A DNA stretch of 64,000 nt. Origin: Trueperaceae bacterium (GTDB taxonomy: Bacteria; Deinococcota; Deinococci; Deinococcales; Trueperaceae). Positions 32,637-60,902 of the stretch are shown in pieces; positions within the stretch are counted from its first letter, which is position 1; every line of letters begins with the position of its first letter. Below the pieces are notes generated by a model. That model had not been told where the DNA came from. It made no database searches and was given only the letters and a program-made list of their open reading frames with translations. Where the stretch lies: contig OZ243913.1 in the NCBI GenBank assembly GCA_965213705.1, positions 128,001 through 192,000 of the forward strand, read 5' to 3'. Position numbers and translations under genes: made by a program.

Positions 32637-32670
32637 AGTATAGGGTTCAAACCCTTACAAATTTCTTACT
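32637..32670 (-). promoter_or_regulatory. Direct-repeat activator-type promoter, copy 1
   Basis: AGTAAG-aaatt-TGTAAG-N11-TATACT. Confidence 0.7.
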
Positions 32671-33487
32671 TGCGCCGCGGCAGCTGACACTTCGGGCAAA
32701 AGTGCGTGCCTCGCCCGGCCACGACGATTTTCGAAATCGGCGTGCCGCAGCGGGGACAGGGTGCCTCTTTTTGGCCGTAGGCGTTGAGTTCGTCCAGGTA
32801 CGCCCCGACCTCGCCGTTGACGGTGCGGTAGTCGCGCAGGGTCGTGCCCTGAACCGCAATCGAGGCGGTAAGCACGTCTTTAATCATCGTCACCAGGAGC
32901 GGGATTTGCCGTTTAGGGACGCGGTTCGAAGGGGTCAGCGGGTGGATTTTGCTCGCCCATAGCGCCTCGTCCGCGTAGATGTTGCCGACGCCCGACACGG
33001 GTTTTTGGCTCAGGAGGTAGGTTTTGACGGCGACGCTGGACTTAGCGAGCGCTTCGGCAAGCTGTTCGGGGTTGAAGGCGTCGCTCAGCGGTTCCGGCCC
33101 CATCGCGTGCAGGGTCGGCAAGCTTGTATAGTCGCCCGTCGGCACGACCAGAAAGCGCCCGAAGCGGCGCGCGTCTTGAAAGTAGAGGGTAGGGTTCTCG
33201 CCCTCGTCAAGCTCGAGCCTCACCCGCACGTGCTTACCGGGGTCGCGCGGACTGACGATGCCGGTCATGCCTAAGTGGACGACCATTTCGTCGCCGCGCT
33301 CGAGCGGCAACAGGAGAAACTTGCCGCGCCGGTTCACGGCGTCGATGCGCTGCCCGGCGGCGCGTTCCAGACCGGCGTACTTCGGGCCCGGCGGCGCGTC
33401 GACGCGCTCGGCTCTCAGGATGGTCCGCCCGGTAAGCCAGGGCGCTAGCTCGCGTCGGACGGTTTCGACTTCGGGAAGTTCGGGCAA
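32666..33487 (-). CDS. mutM: Formamidopyrimidine-DNA glycosylase
   Basis: PELPEVET, RRGKF, HLGMTG, GVGNIYADE, C-terminal zinc finger CPRC...CPKCQ. Confidence 0.97.
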   Translation of the reverse strand: MPELPEVETVRRELAPWLTGRTILRAERVDAPPGPKYAGLERAAGQRIDAVNRRGKFLLLPLERGDEMVVHLGMTGIVSPRDPGKHVRVRLELDEGENPTLYFQDARRFGRFLVVPTGDYTSLPTLHAMGPEPLSDAFNPEQLAEALAKSSVAVKTYLLSQKPVSGVGNIYADEALWASKIHPLTPSNRVPKRQIPLLVTMIKDVLTASIAVQGTTLRDYRTVNGEVGAYLDELNAYGQKEAPCPRCGTPISKIVVAGRGTHFCPKCQLPRRK

Positions 33488-33502
33488 GGGGTATCACCTC
33501 AA

Positions 33503-33580
33503 AGAAGTACCGAGTACCGAGTGGAAAGTAGAAAGTGAAAAAGAAAGTTCTAGCCTTTTCGCCTCTGCTCCTCTGCGCTT
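33503..33580. repeat. Heptamer-repeat element (GTACCGA / GAAAGTA units)
   Basis: AAGTACCGAGTACCGAGTGGAAAGTA matches the 48739 copy at 24 of 26 nt. Confidence 0.65.
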
Positions 33581-33693
33581 TCGGCTCGAGACGGTTCACC
33601 AACAGAAGCGTCCAACTTGCCTAGAGTCTACCGCGCGCCGAATTGCAGCGCCGTCGGCACCTCGACATGCCACGGTAGTGCTAGCCTGGGCGC

Positions 33694-35112
33694 ATGTCAC
33701 GCTTCGACGCCGCCGTGGTGGGTTCCGGGCCGAACGGGCTGGCCGCGGGAATCGTGCTCGCCCAGGCCGGGCTCAAGGTCGCGTTGTACGAGGCGCGCGA
33801 GACCGTCGGCGGCGGGATGCGTACTGCTGAACTCACGCTGCCAGGGTTCAAGCACGACGTTTGCTCGGCGATTCACCCGCTCGGGGTGGGCTCGCCGTTT
33901 TTCAGGACGTTGCCGCTTGAAAACTACGGCCTCGAGTGGGTCTACCCGGACGCGCCCCTGGCGCATCCGCTGGACGGCGGGGCGGTAGTGCTCGAGCGGT
34001 CGTTGGACGCGACGCTGGAAAACTTGGGCGAGGACGCCAGGGCCTACGAAGCGCTGTTCGCGCCCCTCGTCGAGCACTGGGAAGGACTTGCTGGCGACTT
34101 TCTCGGGCCGCTGTTGCGCTTTCCGCAGCACCCCCTGACGCTCGCCCGTTTCGGCGTGCGGGCGCTGCCGAGCGCGACGCTGTTGGCGAACACGGTGTTC
34201 AAGGGCGAACGGGCGCGGGCGCTGTTTGCAGGCCTGGCGGCGCATTCCATTTTGCCGCTCGAGGCCCCCGCGACCGCCGCCTTTGGGCTCGTGTTGGGGC
34301 TGCTTGGGCACGCGGTCGGCTGGCCGTTTCCGAAGGGCGGGGCGCAGGTGTTCGCCGACGCCCTCAGCGCGCACTTCAGGACGCTCGGCGGCGAGGTTTT
34401 TACGGGTGCGAAGGTCGAATCGCTCGAGGGGCTCGAGGCCAAAACCGTCCTGTTAGATGTCGGGGCCAAGCAGTTTTTGGGCATGGCGGACGACAGCTTG
34501 CCGAGTGATTACCGGCGGGCGCTCGAGCGCTACCGCCACGGCGCGGGCGTGTTCAAGCTCGACTACGCCCTCAGCGGCCCGGTGCCCTGGCGGGACGAGG
34601 CTTGCTTGCGCGCCGGGACGGTTCACGTGGGCGGAACGCTGAACGAGATTGCCGCTTCGGAACGGGCCATGAAACGGGGTGAAGTCCCTGAGCGGCCCTA
34701 CGTCTTGGTCGCGCAGCAAAGTTTGTTCGACCCCAGCCGCGCACCCGAGGGCAAGCACACCTTGTGGGCGTACTGCCACGTGCCGAACGGCTCGGCGGCG
34801 GACATGACGGAGGCGGTCGAGGCGCAGCTCGAGCGCTTCGCCCCCGGTTTTCGGGAGCGCGTGCTGGCGCGGCACACCATGAACGCTCCGGCTTTCGAGA
34901 GCTACAACCCCAACTACGTCGGCGGCGACATCAACGGCGGCGCGGCTAGTTTGTGGCAACTCTTGGCGCGGCCCGTCCCGCGCCCGAATCCTTACAAGAC
35001 ACCCTTGGACGGCGTTTACCTGTGCTCCGCCTCGACGCCTCCGGGTGGCGGCGTCCACGGCATGTGCGGTTACCACGCGGCGCGGGCGGCGCTGCGCGAA
35101 GTGTTGGGTTGA
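33694..35112 (+). CDS. Phytoene desaturase-family FAD-dependent oxidoreductase
   Basis: GSGPNGL Rossmann motif, HDVCSAIHP, CSASTPPGGGVHGMCG. Confidence 0.88.
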   Translation: MSRFDAAVVGSGPNGLAAGIVLAQAGLKVALYEARETVGGGMRTAELTLPGFKHDVCSAIHPLGVGSPFFRTLPLENYGLEWVYPDAPLAHPLDGGAVVLERSLDATLENLGEDARAYEALFAPLVEHWEGLAGDFLGPLLRFPQHPLTLARFGVRALPSATLLANTVFKGERARALFAGLAAHSILPLEAPATAAFGLVLGLLGHAVGWPFPKGGAQVFADALSAHFRTLGGEVFTGAKVESLEGLEAKTVLLDVGAKQFLGMADDSLPSDYRRALERYRHGAGVFKLDYALSGPVPWRDEACLRAGTVHVGGTLNEIAASERAMKRGEVPERPYVLVAQQSLFDPSRAPEGKHTLWAYCHVPNGSAADMTEAVEAQLERFAPGFRERVLARHTMNAPAFESYNPNYVGGDINGGAASLWQLLARPVPRPNPYKTPLDGVYLCSASTPPGGGVHGMCGYHAARAALREVLG

Positions 35113-35235
35113 AGTCAAGCAGGTTTGCTTAAACAAACTACGTTTTGACAAGGCTGACGACGGGGTGACACGTTTGAGGTGATGGGTTGTGACTTACACC
35201 GTCAATCTTCTCCTCGGTCTGTTTATTCGCGCTGT

Positions 35236-36342
35236 TTATGCGTACAGGTAAAATCCGTTTTTGCCCCGTTTTTTGGCGCAGTACATCGCCTGGTCGGCCT
35301 GCGCGAGTAGGGCGTCGGGCGTGCCTGTAGTCGTTTGATAAATCGCAAAACCGACGCTGGCACTAACTTGGTATTCAACGCCTTTTAAGTCGAAGGGAGC
35401 TTGCAGCGTTTCTATCAACTTGGCGGCCACGGCGTTGACCCCTGCGGGCGTGGTAGCCGCCGGTAACAGCGCCGCAAACTCGTCACCGCTGATGCGCGCC
35501 AGCAAGTCTGCGGCGCGCAACTGCGTTTTCAAACGGGCGGCGACCTCTTTGAGAAGCAGGTCGCCTGCATGGTGACCAAGGGTGTCGTTGACCGTTTTAA
35601 AGTTGTCGAGGTCGATGAACGCCAGCGCAAACCCGCCCTGGTCGCGCTGAGCACTTTTGCAGGCCTGCGTTAAGTGAGTGTCGAACAGCAGCCGGTTGGG
35701 CAGTCCGGTCAGAGGGTCTTTGTAGGCCAGCTCGGCCACCGCCTCCGCACGGGCGCGCACCTGGTTGCTGACCTCTAAAAAGTGAGTAAGTGTGTAGAGC
35801 ATGGCAATATACACACCGCCCAAGGTGGGCACAGACAATAGAAACCCCTGGACGACGTCGTGCTCTGCTCGCGCGGGCGTCAGGTGCAACAAGTAAGGAG
35901 CGGCGAGCGCCAAGGTGCTGGCTATAAACAGGAGTGAGACTTGCAAACCTCGCCGCCTTTTGAAAGCTAAAAACGACCACACGTAAATGGGCGGCGAGAA
36001 CATCAAAAAAGCCTCGAGGTAAATTCGCATGTGAGGCTCTGACCTGCCGTACAGCAACTGCTCGAGCACCAGCAAGTTGTAGCTGCACAAAACGGCTAAA
36101 ATGCCCCACTCGACCAGTTTCAAGCTGTCCGGACGCACCCACAGCAAAAGTGCCAAAAGAGCGAGCGCGGCAAGAACCACCGGAACCAGCGTTTCATAGA
36201 AACTTTGAAACCATAAAAAGCCGCCCAGCAGCGTTTGGGATAGGCCCGCAGCGAAACCCAGCAGCAGGGCGACAAGGTAAAAGCTGCGCCGAGAGCGCTC
36301 TTCCAGAGCCGGGGGTTGGGGTTTGTTCGGGGCAGCGTACAA
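35236..36342 (-). CDS. Membrane-bound diguanylate cyclase (GGDEF domain, SGDEF variant)
   Basis: About six TMs; DPLTGLPNR, IDLDNFKTVNDTLGH, RAAD I-site, SGDEF, ADQAMY; start uncertain. Confidence 0.9.
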   Translation of the reverse strand: MYAAPNKPQPPALEERSRRSFYLVALLLGFAAGLSQTLLGGFLWFQSFYETLVPVVLAALALLALLLWVRPDSLKLVEWGILAVLCSYNLLVLEQLLYGRSEPHMRIYLEAFLMFSPPIYVWSFLAFKRRRGLQVSLLFIASTLALAAPYLLHLTPARAEHDVVQGFLLSVPTLGGVYIAMLYTLTHFLEVSNQVRARAEAVAELAYKDPLTGLPNRLLFDTHLTQACKSAQRDQGGFALAFIDLDNFKTVNDTLGHHAGDLLLKEVAARLKTQLRAADLLARISGDEFAALLPAATTPAGVNAVAAKLIETLQAPFDLKGVEYQVSASVGFAIYQTTTGTPDALLAQADQAMYCAKKRGKNGFYLYA

Positions 36343-36352
36343 GGTAGCAAAC

Positions 36353-36386
36353 AGTGTAAGTCAGCAGACGTCACAAAACTCTTACA
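36353..36386 (-). promoter_or_regulatory. Direct-repeat activator-type promoter, copy 2 (diguanylate cyclase)
   Basis: TGTAAG-agttt-TGTGAC-N11-TACACT. Confidence 0.7.
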
Positions 36387-36482
36387 CTTCGTCGGCACTC
36401 AGCGGCCCGCGTCGCGCTGCCGGGAGTCGTGCAGCTAAAAAAGCACAAAGGCAAACCCGCTCTACCGGCCGCCGGGGACGGC

Positions 36483-36504
36483 AGCGGTTCGCCGCTCTTT
36501 TTTT
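36483..36504 (+). terminator. Terminator-like hairpin with no plus-strand gene upstream
   Basis: AGCGG-TTCG-CCGCT followed by CTTTTTTT. Confidence 0.55.
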
Positions 36505-36533
36505 CTCTGTAGCCGCTTGGTTTATCATGCGCT

Positions 36534-39598: not shown

Positions 39599-39627
39599 CG
39601 ACCGAGTCAACTACCTGGCGAGCAACG

Positions 39628-40236
39628 CTAAGGCAGACCCTGTGGCAGCCAGAACACCAGCGCCGCGCAGGACACGCCTACAAAGAAGCCCCACACCACG
39701 TCGGGCACCGTGTGACGGCCTAAGTAGACGCGGGACCAAGCGACCAACCCGCACAGCGCAAACAGCAGCGCCCCAACCGGCGGTTGCAAAAAGGCGAGGA
39801 AGGTCGCGCAGGCCGCGTCGGTCAGGACGTGCAGACTCACCTTGTGGACGAGCAGGTTGACAAACGCCCCCACCGTAATCGCGACGAGCGCCGTAACAAG
39901 CGCCCACCACACGATTTCAGGTGCGGGCAGTACGGCGAGGGCGGCCAACAGAGCGACCATCGTCAGCCCGGCCATGACGTAAAGCGTGTGGCGGTCCTCG
40001 CGGCGCGACACGTCCCAGTCCTCGTAGCGCCCGCGCCGCACGCGAAACTGGATAAACGCGAACAAGGGCACCAGCGTCGTGCCGCAGGCGAAACAAGTCC
40101 ACAGCGTCGCCTCCAACGAGGTCGCCCCGGACAACCGCTGCACCGCGAACAGGGACAGCGGCGCGACAAACAGCGGGTGGAGCGCGCGCGACGCCCACAC
40201 GGCGATAAACTTTGGAACGGGCGAAAGCTCAGACAA
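39628..40236 (-). CDS. PAP2-like membrane protein
   Basis: Multi-TM; KVSLH and WSRVYLGRHT. Confidence 0.75.
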   Translation of the reverse strand: MSELSPVPKFIAVWASRALHPLFVAPLSLFAVQRLSGATSLEATLWTCFACGTTLVPLFAFIQFRVRRGRYEDWDVSRREDRHTLYVMAGLTMVALLAALAVLPAPEIVWWALVTALVAITVGAFVNLLVHKVSLHVLTDAACATFLAFLQPPVGALLFALCGLVAWSRVYLGRHTVPDVVWGFFVGVSCAALVFWLPQGLP

Positions 40237-40303
40237 ACTGGGTCCGAGCGTAACCGCGCGCGTGCGCCTCTATAAAGGGTTCTTTCACAGCGTTTAGGTT
40301 TAC

Positions 40304-40567: not shown

Positions 40568-40606
40568 ATATTTACGATACTGCGCTCGAGAGGGCTTGTC
40601 CAGCCT

Positions 40607-45205: not shown

Positions 45206-45212
45206 AAGGGTG

Positions 45213-45914
45213 TTACTCGCTCGCCTCGTCCAAAAACTGCTGCAACTTTTTCGGGTTGACCGTGATTGGTGCGCGGCGGCGGCGCACCGCGCCGTACTCG
45301 AGCAACCTCGCCAAGCAGTGCGACACGGTTTCGCGGGTCGCGCCTATCATCTTGGCTAAGTCTTGCTGGGTCAGGTTCAGGTCGATGACCGTGCCACGCT
45401 CGCCGTCGACGCCGAAGTCGCTCGAGAGCCGCAGCAGCAGGTTCGCCAAGCGGCCCGGCGCGTCGTAAGCGCCGACCTCGGCGAACCGCGCCTCGGCGCG
45501 CCACAGGTTGGTGGACATGACCTGGATGAACTTCATGGCGATTTTGGGGTACTGCTGGAGCAAGCGCTGAAAGTCGGTTTCGGGCAGCACGATGAGGGTG
45601 GTGTCGCTCACCGCCTCGGCCTGGTTGGGGCGGCGCTCGCTTTGCAGCAGCAGCAACTCGCCAAAAGCGTCGTACTTGCCGAACAGCGCCAAAATCATCT
45701 CTTTGCCGTTGGGAAAGTACATCGAGATTTTGACCATGCCGTCGCGGATAAAGTAGAGCGCGTCGGCGGGGTCTTCCATGTGGTAGATGATTTCCCCGGC
45801 GCTGAACTTTTTGTACGGGGTGATGCGGGTGATTTGCTCCAACTCGTCCTCGGACAAGTCTTCGAACAACTGCGTGTTTTTGAGGTGCCAAACGAGGCTG
45901 GGATATTCTTGCAT
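45213..45914 (-). CDS. Crp/Fnr family transcriptional regulator
   Basis: cNMP-binding barrel (FGE..L...R), HTH LTQQDLAKMIGATRETVS. Confidence 0.93.
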   Translation of the reverse strand: MQEYPSLVWHLKNTQLFEDLSEDELEQITRITPYKKFSAGEIIYHMEDPADALYFIRDGMVKISMYFPNGKEMILALFGKYDAFGELLLLQSERRPNQAEAVSDTTLIVLPETDFQRLLQQYPKIAMKFIQVMSTNLWRAEARFAEVGAYDAPGRLANLLLRLSSDFGVDGERGTVIDLNLTQQDLAKMIGATRETVSHCLARLLEYGAVRRRRAPITVNPKKLQQFLDEASE

Positions 45915-46964: not shown

Positions 46965-47969
46965 TTACAGGTTGAGGAAGGGCTCGAGCCGCCGCACGCC
47001 CGTCAGCTTTTCCCGCAAACGCTCGCCGTACGCTGAACCGGTAAAGTCGTCTATCGTCACGCGCATGTAGTGGGCGTTGGCGTGAATAAAACGTGTACCG
47101 CCCAAAGACAGCGCCACGTGGCCGGGAAAAAAGAGGAGGTCGCCGGGTTGCGCGTCGTCGGGGCCGACTTCCGCGCCGCAGCGCGCTTGCTGGTCCGCGT
47201 CGCGGGGCAAGGCCACACCGAACGCGCCGTAAACGGTCTGGACGAGGCCCGAGCAGTCCAGGCCCCAGGCGCTCACGCCGCCCCAACTGTAGGGCGTCTC
47301 GAGAAACCTCTTTGCAAAATGGGTCACGGCGTGCGGACTGGGTTCGGGGTGAGGAGTAGTTAGGGGCTCGAGCAAACTCGTCCTGACGTACCCCGTTCCG
47401 TCACGCCCGTACACGACCCGCGCCCAGCCTTTTTCCTCACCTTCGACCCGCAACGCTCCTCCGAACGAAAGCTCGAAAAGACGTTCGCTCGCCACCGTCG
47501 GCGCGGCGAAAACGTGGCCGCGCGGCGCGGTAAAGCGGTAGTTGGGCTCGGGCAGGGTTTCGGCAAGCGCGGCAGCGTTCAACCAGCCCAAATACCCGTC
47601 ACGTTCCGTTGTCACGCGCAACCAGGCGTCCACGCGGTCGTAAACGTGTACCCGTTCGCCGTAGAGAAGTTCGTTCGCGGTTTCGCCGTCGGGGCGGGGC
47701 GCGGCGCGCAAAAAGACACGCTGGGGTAGGACGTAATGCAGGGTCGGGCTTATAAACTCGACCGCCGACCCGATACCTTGCTCGGCAGCAAAATGGGACA
47801 GGTCGGGCTCGAGCGCAGCTTCGGCCACCCCGGTCAGCACGCCGCCCTGCACGCCCACGTCGCAGAGCGCGGTGCGCGGGTCAGGGACGAGGTCACGTCT
47901 AAAGCGTGCAAAAGTTTCGGTCAAACTCGCAGGTTCCGGACTCACAGGACGACTCGTTTCAGACGCCAC
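46965..47969 (-). CDS. NlpC/P60 (C40) peptidase with SH3b domains, YkfC-like
   Basis: PYSWGG, GLDCSGLVQ, LPRDADQQ, GHVA, FIHA; GTG start overlapping the mrpG stop region. Confidence 0.88.
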   Translation of the reverse strand: MASETSRPVSPEPASLTETFARFRRDLVPDPRTALCDVGVQGGVLTGVAEAALEPDLSHFAAEQGIGSAVEFISPTLHYVLPQRVFLRAAPRPDGETANELLYGERVHVYDRVDAWLRVTTERDGYLGWLNAAALAETLPEPNYRFTAPRGHVFAAPTVASERLFELSFGGALRVEGEEKGWARVVYGRDGTGYVRTSLLEPLTTPHPEPSPHAVTHFAKRFLETPYSWGGVSAWGLDCSGLVQTVYGAFGVALPRDADQQARCGAEVGPDDAQPGDLLFFPGHVALSLGGTRFIHANAHYMRVTIDDFTGSAYGERLREKLTGVRRLEPFLNL

Positions 47970-48438
47970 GATTGGACAACCCCGCCGGGTCTTCGGCGTC
48001 GCTGGGGCCGAGCGCTTCGGAGGCCGCGCCGAGCGCGCCCCACTCGTCCACGCTGCCCTCCTCAAGATAGGGTTCGAGGCCGCGCAGGTAGCCCGCGCGC
48101 GCAATCATGTAGCTCGACAAGGGCGCGGTGAGAAAGAAAAACGCGGCCGTGAGCAGCACCCGCTGGGTCACGCCGAGGGGCGCGAAGGCAATCGCCGCGC
48201 CGCCGAACACGCCGATGCCGCCCAGAGTCACGAGCTTGCTCGAGGCGTGCAGGCGCGCGTAAAAGTCCGGAAACCTGAGCATTCCGATACCCGCCGTGAG
48301 GATGAACACGCAACCGAACAAGATGAGCAGTTCCGCGACCACGCTGCTCCTGACCGCTCGCTCGACGCTCGCCGCCTCCGGCGAGGCGAACGCGACCGCG
48401 CTCAGCAGCCCTAGCCAGACGTTGAGCTTGCCCCTCAC
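47959..48438 (-). CDS. mrpG: Mrp Na+/H+ antiporter subunit G
   Basis: RFPDFYARLHASSK, FLTAP. Confidence 0.9.
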   Translation of the reverse strand: MRGKLNVWLGLLSAVAFASPEAASVERAVRSSVVAELLILFGCVFILTAGIGMLRFPDFYARLHASSKLVTLGGIGVFGGAAIAFAPLGVTQRVLLTAAFFFLTAPLSSYMIARAGYLRGLEPYLEEGSVDEWGALGAASEALGPSDAEDPAGLSNRGV

Positions 48439-48695
48439 CGCATCACCCGGCCGCCCAGCAAGTACCGCGCCAGCGCGACCGTGCTCAAAAAACCCAAAAT
48501 CGACACGATGAGCGCCACGTCGATAAACGCCGCCTGACCCGTTTTGAGGGCAACCACCATGACGAGCACCGCCACGCCGGTGCTCAAGAAGTCCAGCGCC
48601 GCGATGCGGTCACCCCAGGTCGGCCCGGCCAGCGCCCGGTAAAGCGTGAGGCCGATGGCGACGACGAGACAAACGAGTGCGATGGTTAGGACCAT
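48435..48695 (-). CDS. mrpF: Mrp antiporter subunit F
   Basis: GPTWGDRIAALD, LGFLSTVALARY; ATG 48695 with GGAGG RBS. Confidence 0.9.
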   Translation of the reverse strand: MVLTIALVCLVVAIGLTLYRALAGPTWGDRIAALDFLSTGVAVLVMVVALKTGQAAFIDVALIVSILGFLSTVALARYLLGGRVMR

Positions 48696-48737
48696 GATGA
48701 CCTCCGTAGGGAGTGTAGGTTTTGAAATAGGCTTGGG

Positions 48738-48838
48738 AAAGTACCGAGGACCGAGTTGAAAGTACCGAGTGAAAGGCAAAAGCTTTTGACCTTAGTCTTC
48801 TCTCTTTCTACTCGGTACTCAGGACTCGGTCCTTTTTG
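48738..48838. repeat. Inverted heptamer-repeat element inserted between mrpE and mrpF
   Basis: GTACCGA/GGACCGA left arm, AAAAGCTTTTGACCTT core, ACTCGGT right arm. Confidence 0.75.
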
Positions 48839-48849
48839 CCCCGTCCGCC

Positions 48850-49317
48850 TCACCTCATAAACCCCAGAATAAGCGTCTCGATGCGGGTGATGTTGGCGTG
48901 AGCTTTGCCCAGTTCAGCCTCGCCGATGGCGTGGGCGTAAAGGACCGACTTGTCCGCCGACACGCCCATCGCGACCGTACCCGGCAGCAGCGTGATGGTC
49001 GCGGCGAGAAGCGAAATCGCGCCGTCGCTCTGCAGGCGCAGCGGCACCGCGAGCACGTGCGGGTGAAAGGCGGGCCGCGGCAACAGGGTCAACTTGGTAA
49101 CCGCGAAACTCGCCACGACCAGTTCAACCAAAAAGCGGTAGACGAAAAACACCAGCGCCCCGAGCCGCTTCGGGAACGAGCGCTCCCGGTCGCGCTGCAC
49201 GATGCTGAGGAGGAACAAGCCGAGCAGCGCCCCCACGACGAGGTTGTACCCCGACAACTCGCCGAAAAACAGCGACCAAACGAGGGAAAAACCCAAAATA
49301 GCGAGGATGTCGACCAT
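48850..49317 (-). CDS. mrpE: Mrp antiporter subunit E
   Basis: ITLLPGT, LYAHA. Confidence 0.9.
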   Translation of the reverse strand: MVDILAILGFSLVWSLFFGELSGYNLVVGALLGLFLLSIVQRDRERSFPKRLGALVFFVYRFLVELVVASFAVTKLTLLPRPAFHPHVLAVPLRLQSDGAISLLAATITLLPGTVAMGVSADKSVLYAHAIGEAELGKAHANITRIETLILGFMR

Positions 49318-50879
49318 CAGCGACCTTCGTCCCCAATACCTTCATTCTGGACGGGTGGGGAGGTCGAATCGGCGGGTGGCGTGAGGACGGCGGTAACATA
49401 TGCGCCGTTGGTCTCCAACTGGAGAGCCGTTTTTTCAGCCGCGCCGAACACGGGGCCGCTGAAAACGGCCAAGCCCGCGACCAAGAGGACGGCGGTGAGC
49501 GTTACCAGCCTCATCCCGGCGGGCAACTCGACGTGGTGGACGGCGTCGGATTCGCCCCAAAAAAAGCCGCGCCAGATTTGCATGGCAGCGTAGAGCAGCA
49601 GCAACCCTGCCAGCACCGCGCTGGTTGCCACCGAAATGTTGAGCGCGCTCGGCGCGCTCAAGAGCGCGGTAAGGAGCGCGTACTTGCCGATAAACCCGCT
49701 TGTCGGCGGCAGACCGGCCAACGCCAGCGCACCTATAAAAAAGCCGACGCCCAGGTAAGGGTAGCTGCTGAGGTGGCCGCTCGAGCGGTAACGCTCCCCG
49801 CCGACTTTTTCGGCGAGCGCGGCGATGAGAAAGAGCATAAAAATGAGCAGCACCGAGTGGACGAGGTAGTAAAGCGCCGCGCTCAAACCCGCCGCCGTGC
49901 CGATAAACGCGCCCATCACCAGGTAACCGACCGAAGAGACGTTGGCAAACGCAAGCGCGTGCCGCCAGCGCTGCCGCGCAATCATGCCGAACGCGCCGAC
50001 GAGAATCGTCACCCCGGCCAGCACGAGCAAGACAAGCTGCAGCCCCCGCTCTTGCGGAAACAGCAGCGTAAAGCTGCGAATCAAGGTGTACACGCCCACC
50101 TTGGTGAGCAGTGACGCAAAAAACGCGCTCACCGCCGCCGTGGGCACCGGATAGGCGTTCGGCAACCAAAAACCGAGCGGAAACAGCGCCGACTTGGTCG
50201 CGAAGACCAGTGCCAGCAACGCCGCGACGAGCGTCACGCGCGCGTCCGGCCCGTGCGCCGCGACGCGCACCGAAATGTCCGCCATGTTGAGCGTGCCGAA
50301 CAACCCGTAAGCGAAGCCCGCCGCCACCACGAACACCGCCGAGGCGACCAGGTTGATGACGACATATTTGAAACCCTCGCGCAGTTGCGGCAACTCGTTG
50401 CCCAAGAGCAGCAACCCGTAGGACGAAATCAGCATCACCTCGAACGCGACGAACAAGTTGAACAGGTCGCCCGTCAAAAACGACATGTTGACGCCCATAA
50501 ACAAAAATTGCAGCAGCGCCTGGGCGCCCAGGCGCTCGCGCAGCTGGTTGAGCGTCGCCGACTGGCCCCGGCGCGGCGCGTGTTGCAGCGACGAGCCCGC
50601 GAACAGCACAGTGAGCAGTCCGACCAGTCCGCTCAAACCCAACATCGTCCCGGTAAGCCGGTCGGCGACGAGGCTGATGCCCCAGGGCGCGGCCCACTGC
50701 GCCATCTGCACGACCAAAACCTCACCTTGCAGGGTGCGTTCCAGAATAAAAACGTCGGCGAGCAGGGTGAGCGTCGCGGCGACGGTCGCCACAACGGTGC
50801 GCGCTCCGGGACGCCCCACCAACAACAATACCGACCCCGCTAAAAGCGGCAGTAACACCGGCAAGGCGAGAAGGTTCAC
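49317..50879 (-). CDS. mrpD: Mrp antiporter subunit D
   Basis: LTGDLFNLFVAFEVML, KSALFPL.FWLP.AY, TKVGVY. Confidence 0.95.
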   Translation of the reverse strand: MNLLALPVLLPLLAGSVLLLVGRPGARTVVATVAATLTLLADVFILERTLQGEVLVVQMAQWAAPWGISLVADRLTGTMLGLSGLVGLLTVLFAGSSLQHAPRRGQSATLNQLRERLGAQALLQFLFMGVNMSFLTGDLFNLFVAFEVMLISSYGLLLLGNELPQLREGFKYVVINLVASAVFVVAAGFAYGLFGTLNMADISVRVAAHGPDARVTLVAALLALVFATKSALFPLGFWLPNAYPVPTAAVSAFFASLLTKVGVYTLIRSFTLLFPQERGLQLVLLVLAGVTILVGAFGMIARQRWRHALAFANVSSVGYLVMGAFIGTAAGLSAALYYLVHSVLLIFMLFLIAALAEKVGGERYRSSGHLSSYPYLGVGFFIGALALAGLPPTSGFIGKYALLTALLSAPSALNISVATSAVLAGLLLLYAAMQIWRGFFWGESDAVHHVELPAGMRLVTLTAVLLVAGLAVFSGPVFGAAEKTALQLETNGAYVTAVLTPPADSTSPPVQNEGIGDEGR

Positions 50880-51295
50880 GCCCCACCCCGGCCCTTTGGA
50901 CCGACTTCCGGCGAAACGCTCGGGTGTTCACTGTCGGCGTAGCGCTCGGACAGTTCGGGCGGGTCGGGTTGTTCGGTCAAGTCCTGCACCTGGTCGGTGC
51001 CGGTCGCCTGGTAAGCGCGCATCGACAGCACCAACAGCAGCGCCGTCGTGCCGAAGCCGATGACGATGGCGGTCAGGATGAGCGCTTGCGGCAGCGGGTC
51101 GACGTAGGGTCCGGCGACGTTCAGCAGCGGCGGCGCGGCTTGACGAGTCCCGGCCCCGGCCAGCAAAATGCTGACGTTGACGCCGTAGGAAATGAGTGAC
51201 AAACCCAAAATCACGCGGATGAGCGCTTTTGAAAGCACCATGAATACCCCGGCACCGACCAACAGTGCGGCCAGCAGCGGCAGCGCGAGTTCCAT
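50876..51295 (-). CDS. mrpC: Mrp antiporter subunit C
   Basis: DPLPQALILTAIVIGF. Confidence 0.95.
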   Translation of the reverse strand: MELALPLLAALLVGAGVFMVLSKALIRVILGLSLISYGVNVSILLAGAGTRQAAPPLLNVAGPYVDPLPQALILTAIVIGFGTTALLLVLSMRAYQATGTDQVQDLTEQPDPPELSERYADSEHPSVSPEVGPKGRGGA

Positions 51296-51747
51296 CAGGC
51301 CTGCTCCGCGGGTTCGGTGTCCAGCGGTGTGGGCTCGTCGCGCGTCTCAGCGAGCAGGTTGATGATGGTCAAGGTCGTGCCGATGACGACCAGGAACACG
51401 CCCAAGTCGAACAGGGCCGCCGTCGCCCACTCCAGCTCGCCCGCCCACGGCAACTCCACGTAGCCGTAGGCACTTGTCAAAAAAGGGCGGCCGAAAAGCA
51501 GCGGCGCCGCGCCGGTCGCAAAAGCGATAAGCAGCCCAATCGGCACGAGTTTTTCCGGGGCCAGCGCGAGCAGCCGCCGCTCCTGCGCGATGCGCATGAG
51601 CAAAGCCGACACCGCCACGATTAGACCTGCGATAAAGCCGCCGCCCGGCGCGTTGTGACCGCGCAAAAAGAAGTGAAACCCGATGGCGATGAGGACGAAA
51701 ACTATCGGCGTGGCAAAAGTGCGCAGGATAACTTCCGGAAACTTCAC
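51295..51747 (-). CDS. mrpB: Mrp antiporter subunit B
   Basis: LRGHNAPGGGFIAGL, FDLGVFLVV; GTG 51747 overlaps the mrpA stop. Confidence 0.93.
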   Translation of the reverse strand: MKFPEVILRTFATPIVFVLIAIGFHFFLRGHNAPGGGFIAGLIVAVSALLMRIAQERRLLALAPEKLVPIGLLIAFATGAAPLLFGRPFLTSAYGYVELPWAGELEWATAALFDLGVFLVVIGTTLTIINLLAETRDEPTPLDTEPAEQA

Positions 51748-54101
51748 GCTTCGACCTCGTCTGCGGGTAGGGTAGTTTCTTGGACGGGTTCGGTTGAGGT
51801 CGGCCTGGGTCGCGCCGACGCCCGGCCCGACGCCGTTTTCAGCAGCGCGTACACGCTTACCGCCACAACCCCCAAGACCGTAATCTCCCCCATCGTGTCG
51901 TAGCCGCGAAAGTCTACCAAGATGACGTTGACGACGTTGTATCCGCCACCGAGCGTTTTGCTGTACTCGAGAAAAAAACCTTGAATGCGTTCGGCGATGG
52001 GCGTTTGCACCGCAACCAGCGTGGTGAACACGGTCGCCGTCACGCCTGTTGCGAGCAAGATGTCCACGGCGGCCGCGCCCTGCCCCCTCGAGTACCGCTT
52101 CATCGGCGGCAAAAAGCGGAACACCGACAAGAACAAAATCACCGTGACCGTCTCGATTAAGAGTTGGGTCAGCGCCAGGTCGGGCGCGCTGAGCAGCACG
52201 AACAGCACCGTCGAGCCGATACCCGCCAGCCCCGAAAAGATGATGGCGCTTAAGCGCGAGCGCGCCCGCAACACCCCGACCACGGCGGCGACAATCGCCA
52301 AAATCACCACCCAAAACGCCAGCGGCACCGGCGTCAGCGCGCTCGGCACGTAGCGCCACAGTGCGGACGCCCCCGTCAGCACGACGGCCGCGAAAACCAG
52401 CCGCAGGTGAGTGGCGAAGGGTGCGCCCTGGGTGAGACGGGTGAAGTAACTAGAGAACCGCTCCAGGGCGTCGACAAACGCGTAATACACCGTGTTGCTG
52501 CTCCAACCCGGCGTGACGGCCTTTTGCGCGCGGTAAAACAGGTCGCGCGACAGGTGCAGCCCTGCGCCCGCAAACCAGGTGAACACGCTCAGCGCCAGCG
52601 CCAGCGAAGCGCCGTGCCAGGCGTAGAGCTTTTCAGGCTCGAAACCGAGGGCAGGCGCGGCGAGGTTGGTGAACCAGGTCGCCACGGTGGCACTTGTCAA
52701 GGGATTGCCGGTCAACCCCAGCGGCAGCACGCCGAACAAAACCGTCGCGACGCTCAGCGGCGCGGCGGGCAGCCAAAAGCGCAGCGGCGCTTCGTGAACC
52801 CGCGGGTTGTCGCAGCGGAAAGGCCCGAAGAAGACTTTTAAGAAGCGCAAACTGTAGGCGAACGTCATGATGCTCCCGGCCACGGCGATGGCGATGGGCA
52901 AAACGCCTTCGTGGAGCATGTGTTCGTAAAAAAGTTCTTTCGAGATAAACCCGCCGAAGATAGGCAACCCCGCCATACTGAGCGCGGCGGGCAGGGCGAG
53001 CAAAAAGGTGAGGGGCAGTTTGCGCCGCAGCCCCGACAGGGTGCGAATGTCACGACTTTTCGTCTCGTGGTCGATGATGCCCACCACCATAAACAGCGCC
53101 GCCTTGAACACCGCGTGGTTGACGAGGTGCGCCGTCGCCGCAAAGCTGTCGCCCGCGCCGTAAAGCGCCATCAAAATTCCGAGTTGCGACACGGTCGAAT
53201 AAGCCAGGAGCGCTTTCAGGTCGTTTTGCCGCAACGCCAAGTACGAACCCCAGAACATCGTCGCCAAACCGACGTACATGATAAAGGGGGCGAAAGCCGT
53301 GCCCGCGAACACGAAACCCAGTTTGGCAATCAGCACGACCCCGGCCTTGACCATCGTCGCCGAGTGCAAGTAGGCCGAAACGGGCGTGGGCGCTTCCATC
53401 GCGGTCGGCAGCCACAGGTGGAAAGGGAGTTGCGCCGACTTGGTAAACGCGGCGATGACGAAAAAAACCACCATAGGGACGAACAGGGGGCTGGCGCGCA
53501 GCGCCGCCCCGTCGAGTTCGGAAAGTAAAAAACTGCCTCCTGCCAGACCCGCCAGGATCGTCGCGACCAACAGCGCCAGGCCGCCCAAAGCGGTAATGAC
53601 GAGCGCCTTCAACGCCCCGTCAACCGACGCGCGGCGACCGTCCCAAAAACCGATGAGGAGAAAACTCACCACGGACGTCAGTTCCCAAAACGCGAACAGC
53701 GCGACGAGGTTGTCCGCCAACACGAAACCCAACATCGAGCCGCCGAACAAAAGCAGGTAGCTGTAAAAGCGCCCGTGCCGCTCCCGCGGCCCCAGATAAG
53801 CGGCGGCGTAGAGCAAAATCAGCACGCCTATGCCCGCCACGAGCAGCGCAAACAGCAGCGAAAACCCGTCGGCGCGCAGGGTGATGGAAAGGTTGACGGT
53901 CGGGACCCAAGCCAGGTCGGCGGTGAGGGGTTGGCCCGCTCGAGCCGCCCCGGCTTCACTTAGCAGCCCCAAAGCGGGCACGAAAGCCAAAATCAACAAG
54001 TAACCCGCCGCCGCCCTGAACACGCGGCCCAGCAGGGGCGCAAGGACAGCGCCGGCGAAAGGTGTAAACACGGCCCACAGCAACAATGAACTCACACGCA
54101 C
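51744..54101 (-). CDS. mrpA: Mrp antiporter subunit A
   Basis: FTKSAQLPFHLWLP.AMEAPTPVSAYLHSATMVKAG, NVVNVILVDFRGYDT.GE. Confidence 0.95.
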   Translation of the reverse strand: MRVSSLLLWAVFTPFAGAVLAPLLGRVFRAAAGYLLILAFVPALGLLSEAGAARAGQPLTADLAWVPTVNLSITLRADGFSLLFALLVAGIGVLILLYAAAYLGPRERHGRFYSYLLLFGGSMLGFVLADNLVALFAFWELTSVVSFLLIGFWDGRRASVDGALKALVITALGGLALLVATILAGLAGGSFLLSELDGAALRASPLFVPMVVFFVIAAFTKSAQLPFHLWLPTAMEAPTPVSAYLHSATMVKAGVVLIAKLGFVFAGTAFAPFIMYVGLATMFWGSYLALRQNDLKALLAYSTVSQLGILMALYGAGDSFAATAHLVNHAVFKAALFMVVGIIDHETKSRDIRTLSGLRRKLPLTFLLALPAALSMAGLPIFGGFISKELFYEHMLHEGVLPIAIAVAGSIMTFAYSLRFLKVFFGPFRCDNPRVHEAPLRFWLPAAPLSVATVLFGVLPLGLTGNPLTSATVATWFTNLAAPALGFEPEKLYAWHGASLALALSVFTWFAGAGLHLSRDLFYRAQKAVTPGWSSNTVYYAFVDALERFSSYFTRLTQGAPFATHLRLVFAAVVLTGASALWRYVPSALTPVPLAFWVVILAIVAAVVGVLRARSRLSAIIFSGLAGIGSTVLFVLLSAPDLALTQLLIETVTVILFLSVFRFLPPMKRYSRGQGAAAVDILLATGVTATVFTTLVAVQTPIAERIQGFFLEYSKTLGGGYNVVNVILVDFRGYDTMGEITVLGVVAVSVYALLKTASGRASARPRPTSTEPVQETTLPADEVEA

Positions 54102-54302
54102 CCCTGCAAGCGGCTACTCGGAAGACTCACCCAACCACTTTAACCGATTGCCCCGGGCCGTTGCCCTGGACAACTGTCCGCAATCACAAGAGCCCCGTGT
54201 CCGCAGCTATGAGGAGTCCCGGCGAACGCCTGCCCCGGTTCAACTCTCCTCAGTTCAACGCCCTCGTCCAAACACGCAGGCCCCGAGTAAGCCGTTTCTT
54301 TT

Positions 54303-55304: not shown

Positions 55305-55544
55305 GCAAAACTCCTAACTTCGCTGAAGCCGAGGATGACAGGGTGAGAATGACAGGGCAACGCCTCACCCGTTGAAACTTTGCCCTTCATCTTACCGCGC
55401 TCCGGCTAGAGTTCACGTCCGTTAAAAACTCACCTCAACGCCTCTGTACTTTCTTCTTTGTCCTTTTCGCTGTCCTCACTCTCCCGCTTTCCGAGTGCCC
55501 AAACGCCCGTTACCGCCTGGAGGCGCGTGCTACACTTCGTACTC

Positions 55545-57296: not shown

Positions 57297-57664
57297 CGGG
57301 GTTCTCACCCCGGTAGAGGTTTTCAGGCCTCGAGTCCGACGACGGCGAACCGTTCGAAATCGCGCTGACCGAGGGCTTGCCGTTTCCCTGCCACAGCCGC
57401 TTCGACACGAGCGACGGGGTGACGGAAGTCCGCTTGGTTCAAGCCGAACAGGAATAAAAGCTTCTCAGCAAGTTCTCTGTGAACTGAAGGGGTTTGCCTT
57501 TCGCCTCGGTGTTCTCGTTCGGACTGGTCGCCCCTTTGCTGCCCCACACGCGCCTCGAGCTGACCGGGTTGAAAAGGGGCGGCTCGAGCCCATCCTCTCG
57601 CTCGTCGCACAAACTGCAGAAGATACCGGCTCGAGACACAGTTTACCTTTTGTACACTTTCCTG

Positions 57665-58033
57665 TCAGGCACGCACTCGAGACGCTAGTAGCGAGACCAC
57701 GAACTGGTTCAGGCTGACGCCTTCTTCGGCAGCGCGCTCGGCAAGGTCTCGGTGCAAGCTCTTCGGGGTGCGGACAACGAACTTCCCGCTGTAACCTTCT
57801 GTGCTGCGGGGTTCGGGAATAGGGTTGTCTTCCGCGTAGTTGCCGCGCAACCAAACTTCTCTGGCGTCGTCAATCATCGCCATAGCTTCTTCCAAACTGT
57901 CGCCCTGCGTTATGCAGCCAGGCAAGTCTTTAATGTGCGCGACGAAGCCGCCGTCCTCCGAAGGAACGACGGTAACAGGGTACTTGAGCCCGAGGTAATA
58001 CTCGAGCGGTTGACGAGCTTTGCTTTTAACCAT
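57665..58033 (-). CDS. hicB: HicB family antitoxin
   Basis: DLPGCITQGDSLEEA, YSGKFVVR.P.SLH..LA..A..EGVSLN. Confidence 0.92.
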   Translation of the reverse strand: MVKSKARQPLEYYLGLKYPVTVVPSEDGGFVAHIKDLPGCITQGDSLEEAMAMIDDAREVWLRGNYAEDNPIPEPRSTEGYSGKFVVRTPKSLHRDLAERAAEEGVSLNQFVVSLLASRVRA

Positions 58034-58035
58034 GT

Positions 58036-58272
58036 TCAGGCCTCCAGTTCCAACACGTCAATGATGAGCTTTAGGTATTCACGCTTGACCACTTTGCCGC
58101 CCTGGGTGGCGATGGTCAGAGTCTTGCCTTTCCCGTCGCTGTATAAACGGTGACTCGTACCTACAGTTTTGGTTGTGAAGCCGTAACTTTCCAAAACAAG
58201 CTCAACCTCCGAAAAGCGCATCGTCGTTGGTCTGCGGAGCAATTTTTCAACAAGCTTGTCTTTTTTAGACAC
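58036..58272 (-). CDS. hicA: HicA family toxin
   Basis: Small basic protein with LESYGF and GTSH, upstream of hicB. Confidence 0.88.
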   Translation of the reverse strand: MSKKDKLVEKLLRRPTTMRFSEVELVLESYGFTTKTVGTSHRLYSDGKGKTLTIATQGGKVVKREYLKLIIDVLELEA

Positions 58273-58278
58273 ACGTTA

Positions 58279-58298
58279 TGATACTACGTTCAGTACCA
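58279..58298. promoter_or_regulatory. hicAB operator overlapping the -10 box
   Basis: TGATACT-N6-AGTACCA inverted repeat; TATCAT lies 5 nt before the GTG start. Confidence 0.65.
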
Positions 58299-58440
58299 AA
58301 CATCAGTTGGGACGACAAGGTTGATGAAGCTTAGCGTTTCGATTTCCCGGTGAGTTTCGAATTTACACAACCCTTGACATCATTACCGGTGAAATCTTCG
58401 TCAGCCGAACCCCGACTCGAGTGTGGTACGCTTCCTCTTC

Positions 58441-59301
58441 GTGAAAGACCGAGTGGACGCCGAACACCCTTACCGCATCGCCTACCAGGGCGTCGCCGGG
58501 GCCAACAGCGAGCAGGCGAGTTTGCAGTTCCTTACCGACGCCGAGCCGGTCGGCTACCACTCGTTTATGGACGCGTTTACCGCGGCTGTCACAGGCGAAT
58601 GTCACTACGCCTGTCTGCCGGTCGAGAACAGCTTGGCGGGCTCCATCAACCAGACCTACGACCTGCTGACCGACTCGGTGCTGCACGTCGTCGGCGAGGA
58701 AATCGTGCGGGTTCACCACAACCTGATGGCGCGGCCCGGCACAAAGTTGGCAGACATCAAGCGCGTCTACAGCCACCCGCAAGCGCTGTTGCAGAGTCAG
58801 GCGTTCATCACCGGTCACGGCTTTGAAGCGGTGAGCGACTTCGACACCGCCGGAGCCGCCAAACTTTTGGCCGAGAACGGCGGCGAGGGCCGGGCCGCGC
58901 TCGCGACCAAACGCGCCGCCGAGATTTACGGCTTGGAGATTCTGGCCGAGAACGTCGAGGACGCGCCCTTCAACTACACGCGCTTTTTTATCCTGGGGCC
59001 GGTTGAGGCGCCTAAAACGGCTGGAAAAAACAAGTCCAGCCTTGTGTTGGCGACGCGGCACCGGCCGGGCGACCTGGTCGACTGTCTGCAGGAGTTTCCC
59101 AAGTACAACCTCAACCTGACGAAGTTGGAGTCGCGCCCGCGCCGGGACAAACCCTGGAGCTACCTGTTCTACATAGACATCGAAGGGCACATCGAAGACG
59201 AGAACGTCCAAAAAGCCATGACCGGACTCATGCGCAAGGCGGCGTTCGTAAAGTTTTTGGGCTCTTACCCGGCGGCCTCGACCGTCATAGAGCTGGGCTG
59301 A
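58441..59301 (+). CDS. pheA: Prephenate dehydratase (PDT + ACT)
   Basis: AYQG..GANSE, PVENS..G, SHPQAL.Q, NYTRF, LTKLESRP, LGSYP; start uncertain. Confidence 0.93.
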   Translation: MKDRVDAEHPYRIAYQGVAGANSEQASLQFLTDAEPVGYHSFMDAFTAAVTGECHYACLPVENSLAGSINQTYDLLTDSVLHVVGEEIVRVHHNLMARPGTKLADIKRVYSHPQALLQSQAFITGHGFEAVSDFDTAGAAKLLAENGGEGRAALATKRAAEIYGLEILAENVEDAPFNYTRFFILGPVEAPKTAGKNKSSLVLATRHRPGDLVDCLQEFPKYNLNLTKLESRPRRDKPWSYLFYIDIEGHIEDENVQKAMTGLMRKAAFVKFLGSYPAASTVIELG

Positions 59302-59308
59302 GCGGGCG

Positions 59309-59536
59309 ATGACCGACGAGCACGGTGCCGAGCAAGGTACCCCGGACACCCTCACCCTGAACAACGCGCTTAAGCTCATCGGTGTGGCCGACACCGGCGG
59401 ACAAGCCAAACTGATGATTCAGGCCGGGCAAATCAAGGTCAACGGCGAGGTTGAGACGCGCCGCAAACGCAAGCTCCGCGCGGGCGACGTGATAGAAGTC
59501 GGCGGCGAAGAGTTTTTGCTCGAGCTGGAACCCTGA
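59309..59536 (+). CDS. S4 domain RNA-binding protein (YaaA/YbcJ-like)
   Basis: LKLIGVADTGGQAK, VNGEVETRRKRKL..GD. Confidence 0.9.
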   Translation: MTDEHGAEQGTPDTLTLNNALKLIGVADTGGQAKLMIQAGQIKVNGEVETRRKRKLRAGDVIEVGGEEFLLELEP

Positions 59537-59595
59537 ACCGGGGAGACTGAGGGTCCGGGACGTGGCTCCTAGATTTTCGCTGCCGTTAAAGCCAC

Positions 59596-59633
59596 AAAAG
59601 AAAAGCCCCGATGAAGTACCGGGGCCTCTTTTT
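59596..59633. terminator. Bidirectional terminator
   Basis: AAAAGAAAAGCCCCG-N9-CGGGGCCTCTTTTT between convergent genes. Confidence 0.75.
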
Positions 59634-59660
59634 GATGCAGTGTTTCAGTTACCGCAAAGC

Positions 59661-59795
59661 TTACTGCTCGGGTCTGAAGCCGTCCGCACAGGTTTTGCAG
59701 ATTTTCAAGCTCGGAGCCGTTACCGAAGCCGCGAAGCTGAGACCGCCGCCGACGAGGATGAGGCTGAAGAGCAAACCTTTAACGATGTTTTTCAT
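59661..59795 (-). CDS. 44-aa secreted peptide precursor with CxxC
   Basis: MKNIVKGLLFSLILVGGGLSFA|ASVTAPSLKICKTCADGFRPEQ; AAAGGA RBS; own promoter and terminator. Confidence 0.75.
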   Translation of the reverse strand: MKNIVKGLLFSLILVGGGLSFAASVTAPSLKICKTCADGFRPEQ

Positions 59796-59850
59796 TTTGT
59801 TGTCCTTTCTTCCGGGGCTGCCGGCGCTTCGTTGCGTCCGGCTTGAAATG

Positions 59851-59884
59851 AGTTTACAAAAGACTGTCTTACACAAATCTTACG
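59851..59884 (-). promoter_or_regulatory. Direct-repeat activator-type promoter, copy 3 (peptide gene)
   Basis: CGTAAG-atttg-TGTAAG-N11-TAAACT. Confidence 0.7.
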
Positions 59885-59901
59885 CGCGCTCGACGCACGG
59901 T

Positions 59902-60846
59902 TTAGACGGGCTCGACCACGGCGACCGCGGCGCGAAACGCGCACACCACTTCGCGGGGGTAGTGGACGTCGGCGAACTTTTCTAACTCGGCAAAAGCGAC
60001 GGCGGGCGCTAAAGCGGCGCGGTAGGGGCGGTCGGTCGTCATGGCGTCGTAGGTGTCCGCGACCGCGACGATGTAGGACTCCGTCAAAATCTCCCCGTGG
60101 CTGAGCCCATAAGGGTAGCCCGAGCCGTCCATGCGCTCGTGGTGCTGTTCGACGATGACGCCGACGTCGGCGAGCAGCGTGCCCCCCAGCAGTTCTCGCC
60201 CGTAGGTCGGGTGTTGTTTGATGACGGCCCACTCTTCCGGGGTGAGGCTGGTGGGTTTTTGCAAGATGTCCAGGGGGACTTTCAGCTTGCCGACGTCGTG
60301 CAGGTACGCGCCGTAGGAGAGCCGGTAACACTGGTCTACGTCCAGCGCCAGGTTGCGCGCGGTCGCGTTCGACAAGTCTCTCAGGCGGGCACAGTGTTCC
60401 GAGGTGTAACCGTCTTTCTCCTCGACCTCGACGGCCAAGCGCATGAGGTCGCCTGTAAAGGTGTCGGCCTCGCTGAAAACGGGCTGGTTCGACACGCACA
60501 AAAGCGTCGCCCCGTGCAGCGTGCTCAGCACGGCGCGCTCGGCCGTCACGCCCACCGTCACGCTGTCGCCGGGCTCGAGCAAGCTTTTTTGATTTTTGCC
60601 GCTCAGCTCGAAGCAGCCCGACGTGACGTGGTAAACTTCCGCGCAGCGTTCGTCCGACGACTCGGGCGGGGTTAAAAACAACCGCCCGCCCGCCTCGACC
60701 CGGACCTCTATCACTTCAAAGCCGGGCTGTTTGTTGAGCAGACGTGCGTGCGTTTTGCGCGAGGCGAACGCCCGCACGCGGTCCCCCTTGCGGATGACGG
60801 CGAGCCCGCCTTTGGTCGGCACTGTGATGGTCACTTTGGGAGTCAC
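59902..60846 (-). CDS. Cupin + HD-GYP phosphodiesterase
   Basis: KDGYT..H..R, LHDVGK, HHERMDGSGYP, VADTYDAMTTDRPYR; N-terminal cupin-like barrel. Confidence 0.9.
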   Translation of the reverse strand: MTPKVTITVPTKGGLAVIRKGDRVRAFASRKTHARLLNKQPGFEVIEVRVEAGGRLFLTPPESSDERCAEVYHVTSGCFELSGKNQKSLLEPGDSVTVGVTAERAVLSTLHGATLLCVSNQPVFSEADTFTGDLMRLAVEVEEKDGYTSEHCARLRDLSNATARNLALDVDQCYRLSYGAYLHDVGKLKVPLDILQKPTSLTPEEWAVIKQHPTYGRELLGGTLLADVGVIVEQHHERMDGSGYPYGLSHGEILTESYIVAVADTYDAMTTDRPYRAALAPAVAFAELEKFADVHYPREVVCAFRAAVAVVEPV

Positions 60847-60868
60847 GTCAGGAGCAGCCTCGCCGCGA

Positions 60869-60902
60869 AGCTTAGCAGCGCACTTGTCACAAAACTCTTA
60901 TG
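60869..60902 (-). promoter_or_regulatory. Direct-repeat activator-type promoter, copy 4 (HD-GYP)
   Basis: CATAAG-agttt-TGTGAC-N11-TAAGCT; shares an identical 15-mer with copy 2. Confidence 0.7.

Follow-up and report, generated by a model that had tools for sequence, protein, structure and literature searches.

What controls four look-alike promoters on the minus strand of a 64,000-nucleotide (nt) stretch of a Trueperaceae bacterium genome (contig OZ243913.1, positions 128,001 to 192,000, the whole of which is called the window here), two of which precede genes predicted to make and to break down cyclic di-GMP (c-di-GMP)? An initial annotation had attributed the four to a single activator of the OmpR/PhoB family, encoded outside the window, that would co-control c-di-GMP synthesis and breakdown, a secreted peptide and a small RNA (sRNA). 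All four sites were recovered where it had placed them, with the same half-sites, 11-nt spacer (N11) and -10 hexamers (scores are those of a full model combining the direct repeat with the -10 box):

32637..32670, minus strand: promoter 1, AGTAAG-aaatt-TGTAAG-N11-TATACT; full-model score 31.3
36353..36386, minus strand: promoter 2, TGTAAG-agttt-TGTGAC-N11-TACACT; full-model score 31.8
59851..59884, minus strand: promoter 3, CGTAAG-atttg-TGTAAG-N11-TAAACT; full-model score 32.7; conserved in the sister genome G001
60869..60902, minus strand: promoter 4, CATAAG-agttt-TGTGAC-N11-TAAGCT; full-model score 27.2; conserved in G001

These sites belong to a class of 54 in the genome, which is almost certainly a real and conserved regulon of about 50 promoters. 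The class is probably bound and activated by an orphan response regulator of the SARP (Streptomyces antibiotic regulatory protein) type, a candidate put forward by co-occurrence with the motif, domain architecture and analogy with AfsR. The labels given to the protein-coding genes behind promoters 2 to 4 were retained:

35236..36342, minus strand: membrane GGDEF protein, predicted diguanylate cyclase, with SGDEF site and RxxD I-site; start codon uncertain
59661..59795, minus strand: open reading frame (ORF) of 44 amino acids (aa) with a signal-peptide-like N-terminus and a CxxC tail; homologue in G001
59902..60846, minus strand: HD-GYP protein, predicted c-di-GMP phosphodiesterase, with HHExxDGxGYP and, by inspection, a cupin-like N-terminal region

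A terminator-like hairpin lies 3' of the 44-aa ORF, and the best homologues of the HD-GYP gene in two genomes of other genera, G004 and G035, also have the motif upstream.

A genome-wide promoter class and its target genes

The genome (G000) is one contig of 4.25 Mb with 61% GC. Among the 54 sites found with the full model, 46 have the N11 spacer and 8 an N10 spacer, and 51 are intergenic according to rough gene calls, with the consensus YGTAAG-AWTTT-TGTVAG-A-N10-TAnACT (spacer N11, in some N10; -10 box TAnnnT). The spacing is fixed: the 55 best genome matches to a repeat-only matrix have TAnnnT at spacer 11 in 28 cases and at spacer 10 in seven, with no more than four at any other spacing, and moving the -10 box to wrong spacings left 2–10 sites at a high threshold versus 46 at the true one. 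It had been proposed that the motif might prove no more frequent than background; intergenic DNA holds 47 matches at the repeat-only threshold, compared with one or two in each of five Markov-3 simulations. Trained on sites outside the window, the same matrix scores the four window sites at 19.1–22.5 and the window's next best match at 14.4, and four sites in 64 kb make this the densest window of the class (mean 0.8, p ~0.01). Promoters 2 and 4 do share the 15-mer TAAGAGTTTTGTGAC, as had been pointed out, and it occurs exactly twice in the genome; eight identical 15-mer pairs were seen among the 54 sites where about 5.4 are expected by chance, and the shared word therefore marks no special cyclase–phosphodiesterase link, an interpretation that we rejected.

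The genome-wide scan with a motif matrix and fixed-spacing -10 box that had been suggested as a check placed the motif upstream of 13 of the 30 GGDEF(+/-EAL) matches and 5 of the 10 HD-GYP matches, that is 18 of 40, versus 49 of 3,756 predicted genes overall (odds ratio 97, p = 3e-25, or 2e-22 when the two window genes are left out). The idea that synthesis and breakdown of c-di-GMP are marked together was thereby borne out, and the pattern recurs in other genera. A single activator-type motif does mark all four kinds of gene originally named, in a regulon far larger than those four. Its further members include pelF (above cut-off) with a downstream GH114 gene, a PilT/PilU ATPase, two pilin loci, two subtilases, a patatin, a single-domain receiver and a lytic transglycolase locus that we take to be RlpA-like, and many targets are proteins of 40–150 aa without a Pfam match. 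Targets outside G000 were typed by scanning 35 of 48 candidate ORFs. In the held-out genomes G004 and G035 (10 of the 13 sites listed in the former, all 10 in the latter), c-di-GMP enzymes lie 3' of 5 of the 20 sites and subtilases 3' of 4. Twenty selected sites from the Deinococcus family precede major pilin genes (three), GGDEF/HD-GYP proteins (two), MHYT proteins (two) and Lon (two), and a major pilin gene lies 3' of the motif in all three genomes of that family with several annotated sites.

Some targets are worth recording in their own right. At five loci (L027, which is G000:2118806, L071, L078, L082 and L415), the first gene downstream of the motif encodes a conserved protein of 56–68 aa that has no Pfam match; it often lies 5' of a DPBB lytic transglycolase gene. 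In one genome of family f5, a gene for a TPR protein follows a small signal-peptide ORF under the motif (L062:1312-1476); in G000, four of the targets combine TPR with GGDEF or with HD-GYP. On these grounds the signal-peptide ORFs, including the one at 59661-59795 in the window, hint at peptide-sensing c-di-GMP enzymes. A PAS-GGDEF-EAL gene (L012:254-2524; G000:945390-947543) has an in-frame TGA within its EAL domain and is either a pseudogene or a split gene.

A candidate SARP-type response regulator

The regulator was expected to be encoded outside the window, and the candidate indeed lies elsewhere in the genome:

G000:C1:1626850-1627899, minus strand: orphan receiver (REC)–winged helix-turn-helix (wHTH)–BTAD protein, 350 aa, convergent with a motif-bearing GGDEF gene

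Motif and candidate occur together. Over 61 genomes of the order, the pattern GTVAG-N5-YGTVAV-N11-TANNNT was present in 46, the reversed control giving 0–2 matches per genome: in 33 of the 36 family members besides G000, in 6 of 6 genomes of the Deinococcus family (f2, its proteins named Deinococcus), in 6 of 6 of f5 and in 0 of 12 Thermus-type genomes (f3/f4). Forty-six of the 61 had both motif and regulator and 15 had neither, with no mismatch. Among 121 genomes of the family, 37 of which are already counted in the 61, 111 had both, 6 neither, 3 the motif only and 1 the regulator only (117 of 121 agree); G033 is counted in these tallies, and leaving it out changes nothing. Within genus g10, both were found in the same 7 of 11 genomes, and the regulator-only genome, G124, has two N10 sites. 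Since orthologue and motif are present in all six Deinococcus-family genomes searched, the proposal can be put to the test immediately in a genus amenable to genetics. The D. radiodurans orthologue may be DR_2556; a published 18-mer from a promoter of that species matched only three unrelated records.

The candidate has a receiver domain (PF00072, E = 8e-25) and a BTAD domain above the cut-off. Pfam Trans_reg_C did not match the protein itself, and the OmpR-type winged helix before BTAD is supported by alignment with AfsR and by fold: the C-terminal 220 aa align with AfsR (E = 6e-10), and the top Foldseek match of an AF2 model (pLDDT 90.7) is AfsR 8K60, with a TM-score of 0.72 by target length. 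In 44 orthologues, with pairwise identities to the G000 protein down to 41%, the receiver residues D9, D10, D54 and K106 are invariant. AfsR residues T88 and R92 align with T197 and R201 of the candidate, the former at least 90% conserved and the latter invariant among these orthologues; the one orthologue with T197V comes from a genome with one motif match, an anecdotal case.

Source annotations name orthologues 'SAPR family', response regulators of the same REC, wHTH and BTAD architecture, presumably the label of COG3947. We found no binding site or regulon described for any member of that family in the open-access literature, nor any description of this motif or regulator there; earlier descriptions elsewhere may exist. 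The part of PMC8363230 that lists D. radiodurans regulators includes no characterised SAPR member.

The promoters resemble those of AfsR and other SARPs of Streptomyces (the afs box; structures 8K60, 8HVR and 8JKE) in pairing a wHTH-BTAD protein with two 11-bp repeats at -40 and -29. According to the structural account of AfsR consulted in part (PMC10936776), its repeats span -40 to -30 and -29 to -19, with R92 contacting T-38 and T-27 and T88 contacting positions -36 and -25. The N11 motif has its YGT at -40 and -29, a near-invariant T at -38 and -27 and an A at -36 and -25; the downstream repeat lies at -29 if the start is 6 nt past the -10 box, as leaderless start codons suggest (46 of 54 sites being N11). 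At 18 sites, an in-frame ATG or GTG lies 4–8 nt past the -10 box (mode 6), in agreement with leaderless transcripts of the kind described in D. deserti (PMC4007540). By residue alignment, the likeness would extend to a conserved T read by a conserved arginine; the core promoter is weak in both. Unlike AfsR, the candidate has an N-terminal receiver rather than NOD/TPR domains, belongs to another phylum and goes with the half-site YGTVAG, and the putative regulon is a genome-wide c-di-GMP and pilus regulon rather than an antibiotic pathway.

By analogy with AfsR, a kinase would, on some signal, phosphorylate D54 and promote head-to-tail binding of two protomers to the repeats near -40 and -29. 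Bound there, the protomers would keep sigma region 4 and the core polymerase in place where a promoter offers a -10 box alone, recruiting the housekeeping RNA polymerase as AfsR does. The result would be expression of roughly half of the cyclases and phosphodiesterases that the cell has for c-di-GMP, along with pilin and PilT/PilU genes, a pel-like operon, genes for subtilases and small proteins, and C-rich sRNAs resembling anti-Shine-Dalgarno sequences, in a programme that may be one of surface attachment or biofilm formation. Joint activation of cyclases and phosphodiesterases would put a signalling network in place rather than fix a c-di-GMP level. We lean slightly towards a still broader reading, in which type IV pili, the matrix and the c-di-GMP network of Trueperaceae and Deinococcus all have the SAPR regulator as their master activator, through genome-wide use of the sigma adaptation of Streptomyces SARPs, with a new multi-copy, cuckoo-like anti-Shine-Dalgarno sRNA family as the regulator's repressive arm.

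If the assignment is correct, a response-regulator family so far named by annotation pipelines, with no regulon that we found described, would gain a binding site, some 50 targets, a mechanism and its first regulon. SARP-type activation would reach beyond the pathway-specific regulators of Streptomyces, to a regulator of lifestyle that acts globally in a different phylum and serves as master switch of surface attachment among relatives of Deinococcus; in Deinococcus itself, the control of pilin and biofilm could be addressed directly. About half of the cell's c-di-GMP enzymes, makers and breakers alike, would be under transcriptional co-control.

Several observations weigh against this assignment. 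No motif lies 5' of the regulator gene or of its 44 orthologues. Agreement across genomes amounts to about four loss events (the Thermus-type families, g3, g31 and part of g10), since kin genomes are not independent, and these are mostly small genomes; small genomes lose many genes, so another factor could share the regulator's profile. Three genomes have the motif and no regulator that we could find, all drafts of 300–460 contigs (77, 78 and 94% complete), and in f5 the motif counts of 1–3 barely exceed the 0–2 of the reversed control, yet the regulator is present. Eight of the 54 sites, and many sRNA promoters in relatives, have N10; an OmpR-type box with N10 also exists in G000, and spacing is therefore no clean divider between the SARP and OmpR families. 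The comparison with the motif took in ten regulators in addition to the candidate, in a genome with seven further BTAD proteins.

Rival regulators

That a classical OmpR/PhoB regulator runs the regulon, for example a DrRRA-like protein (G000:1693977-1694654; closest solved relative 3Q9S) or the near-invariant regulator adjacent to luxS (G000:3022003-3022689), is unlikely. The repeats are alike in kind, TGTNA-type half-sites with an 11-bp period over the -35 region and just 5' of the -10 box being typical of the family, whose direct-repeat boxes include the pho box and the WalR box, and one local OmpR regulator has a similar box of its own, YGTGAT-N5-YGTGAN-N10-CATACT, upstream in G000 and in several orthologues. 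The dominant spacing here is N11, however, and none of the nine OmpR-type regulators of G000 tracks the motif or has any of the 54 sites 5' of it. Mismatches with motif presence over the 61 genomes number 14 for the DrRRA-like protein, 15 for the luxS-linked one (present everywhere) and 28 and 35 for two others, and the first two, both present in the motif-free G003 and in all 12 motif-free Thermus-type genomes, were rejected on this distribution. Those two others were also rejected: G000:2682940, with its own YGTGAT box, and G000:601392 are present in 19 and 20 of the 61 genomes and unlike the motif in distribution. A PhoB-like regulator and four further OmpR regulators were a misfit in a check of five genomes. 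The family assignment made in the initial annotation was accordingly dropped.

DrRRA shares with our candidate the order and a link to biofilm, the biofilm of D. radiodurans requiring DrRRA (PMC10778927, seen in part), but differs in targets and sites. The DrRRA-dependent genes listed in the portions consulted (PMC6300522; first part of Table S2 in PMC10778927) are general-stress genes, with more targets possible in the rest of the supplement, and the putative sites given in that part of the DrRRA paper are unlike the repeat. Promoters of the ddrI type at 30 loci score at most 6.4 for the motif, and ddrI/sdrP promoters were rejected as carriers of it; RDRM, the motif of the radiation and desiccation response, is palindromic in the account available.

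Observations on OmpR-type regulators themselves can be added. An MtrA/YycF-like regulator (L047:3648-3700, minus strand; L124-L142) has its own box, YGTGAT-N5-YGTGAN-N10 followed by the -10 box, in several orthologues, probably for autoregulation. Next to phoU, a PhoB-like regulator accompanied by a PAS kinase (L031:6624-6700, minus strand) is preceded by TATGAC-N5-CTTGAC-N11-TACACT, a likely pho box. The sequence ATGAAG-N5-YTTANN recurs about 490–700 nt 5' of the DrRRA-like gene or operon (L147, L149, L152, L153 and L172) and may be a DrRRA-like site. One OmpR regulator found in 61 of 61 genomes (L177:4073-4750; L050:2504-3190), identical in sequence in many Deinococcus species, is likely to be essential and unstudied.

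It is quite unlikely that another binder of direct repeats, such as a different BTAD protein, a BldC-like MerR protein or an alternative sigma factor, is responsible and that the SAPR regulator was merely lost along with the lifestyle. The genomes lacking both motif and regulator are small (1.8–3.1 Mb), G000 has seven further BTAD proteins, and BldC is reported to bind direct repeats; the ordinary TAnnnT -10 box nevertheless speaks against an alternative sigma factor, motif and SAPR protein agree even at the level of single species in g10, and the AfsR-like geometry and recognition residues are support independent of co-occurrence. A NarL-type regulator was rejected with 22 mismatches over the 61 genomes. 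It is encoded 3' of a histidine kinase gene in an operon that the motif would drive, leaderless, in the Deinococcus family (L055-L059, L098); the G000 orthologue of this operon (L085:1480-3127) has no site and lies directly 5' of a motif-bearing GGDEF-EAL gene. It is highly improbable that the repeat serves as the operator for a repressor or as an ordinary upstream element in housekeeping promoters: it overlaps the -35 region, which repressors also use, but its strict one-position phase to the -10 box and single orientation suit contact with RNA polymerase, a half-site at that offset occurs in only 9 of 562 generic leaderless-type promoters, and an extended -10 G has a frequency of 0.30 in motif promoters versus 0.68 in generic ones.

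Predicted small RNAs and minor observations

Promoter 1 precedes a candidate sRNA, and other G000 motif sites also precede similar C-rich units:

32588..32630, minus strand: predicted C-rich sRNA of about 43 nt, with 5' ACACCUCCUCC, a GC hairpin with a CCUCCU loop and a U7 tail
32666..33487, minus strand: fpg (formamidopyrimidine-DNA glycosylase), given for context
L022:2754-2836 (G000:1864335-1864255), minus strand: predicted two-hairpin C-rich sRNA of about 80 nt; paralogue at L036:3091-3167, minus strand

The window candidate folds into one stable hairpin (-18.9 kcal/mol, z -4.4) with CCUCCU in both leader and loop. The first half-site of its promoter overlaps the fpg stop codon, and the hairpin may double as the fpg terminator. 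Neither promoter nor C-rich hairpin is present at the orthologous fpg locus of G001, and the window sRNA would therefore be a recent local copy, or else an fpg terminator with a captured promoter. It matches the family model R1 weakly (13.4 bits, E = 0.019), and no Rfam family was found at gathering score in the window, this candidate included.

The two-hairpin units appear to form a conserved predicted sRNA family of Trueperaceae that belongs to no Rfam family. In 15 sequences, 7 of the 9 pairs of the second hairpin covary (the sequences are related, so no probability is attached). A covariance model built without the promoter found the family at E < 1e-4 in 16 of 21 family genomes and weakly elsewhere in the order, in multiple copies (up to seven strong matches in G004). 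The motif lies within 60 nt upstream of 26 of 39 examined copies, or 16 of 29 when copies found through the motif are left out, compared with 0 of 1,500 random windows. The best Rfam match is ar14/cuckoo (RF02344), which the family resembles in adjacent hairpins with C-rich loops and several copies per genome; its scores, 16.2 and 14.3 bits, fall far short of the gathering score of 58.8, and membership was rejected. Cuckoo RNAs have two to four hairpins, each with a CCUCCUCCC loop, whereas the Trueperaceae family has CCUCCC loops and stands mostly under the repeat promoter, and the window copy combines one hairpin with a 5' CCUCCUCCC.

Elsewhere in the window, none of the loci at 57665-58194, 45213-45914, 47959-54086, 8642-12409 and 61287-62048 has the motif; among them are a HicB antitoxin gene preceded by a small ORF, a gene for a CRP-family regulator, an operon for an Mrp Na+/H+ antiporter and stress genes of the DUF2382/fasciclin type. 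At L011 (G000:915549, minus strand), the motif lies 5' of a cysS leader region with short tandem repeats of the CTCGGTA type.

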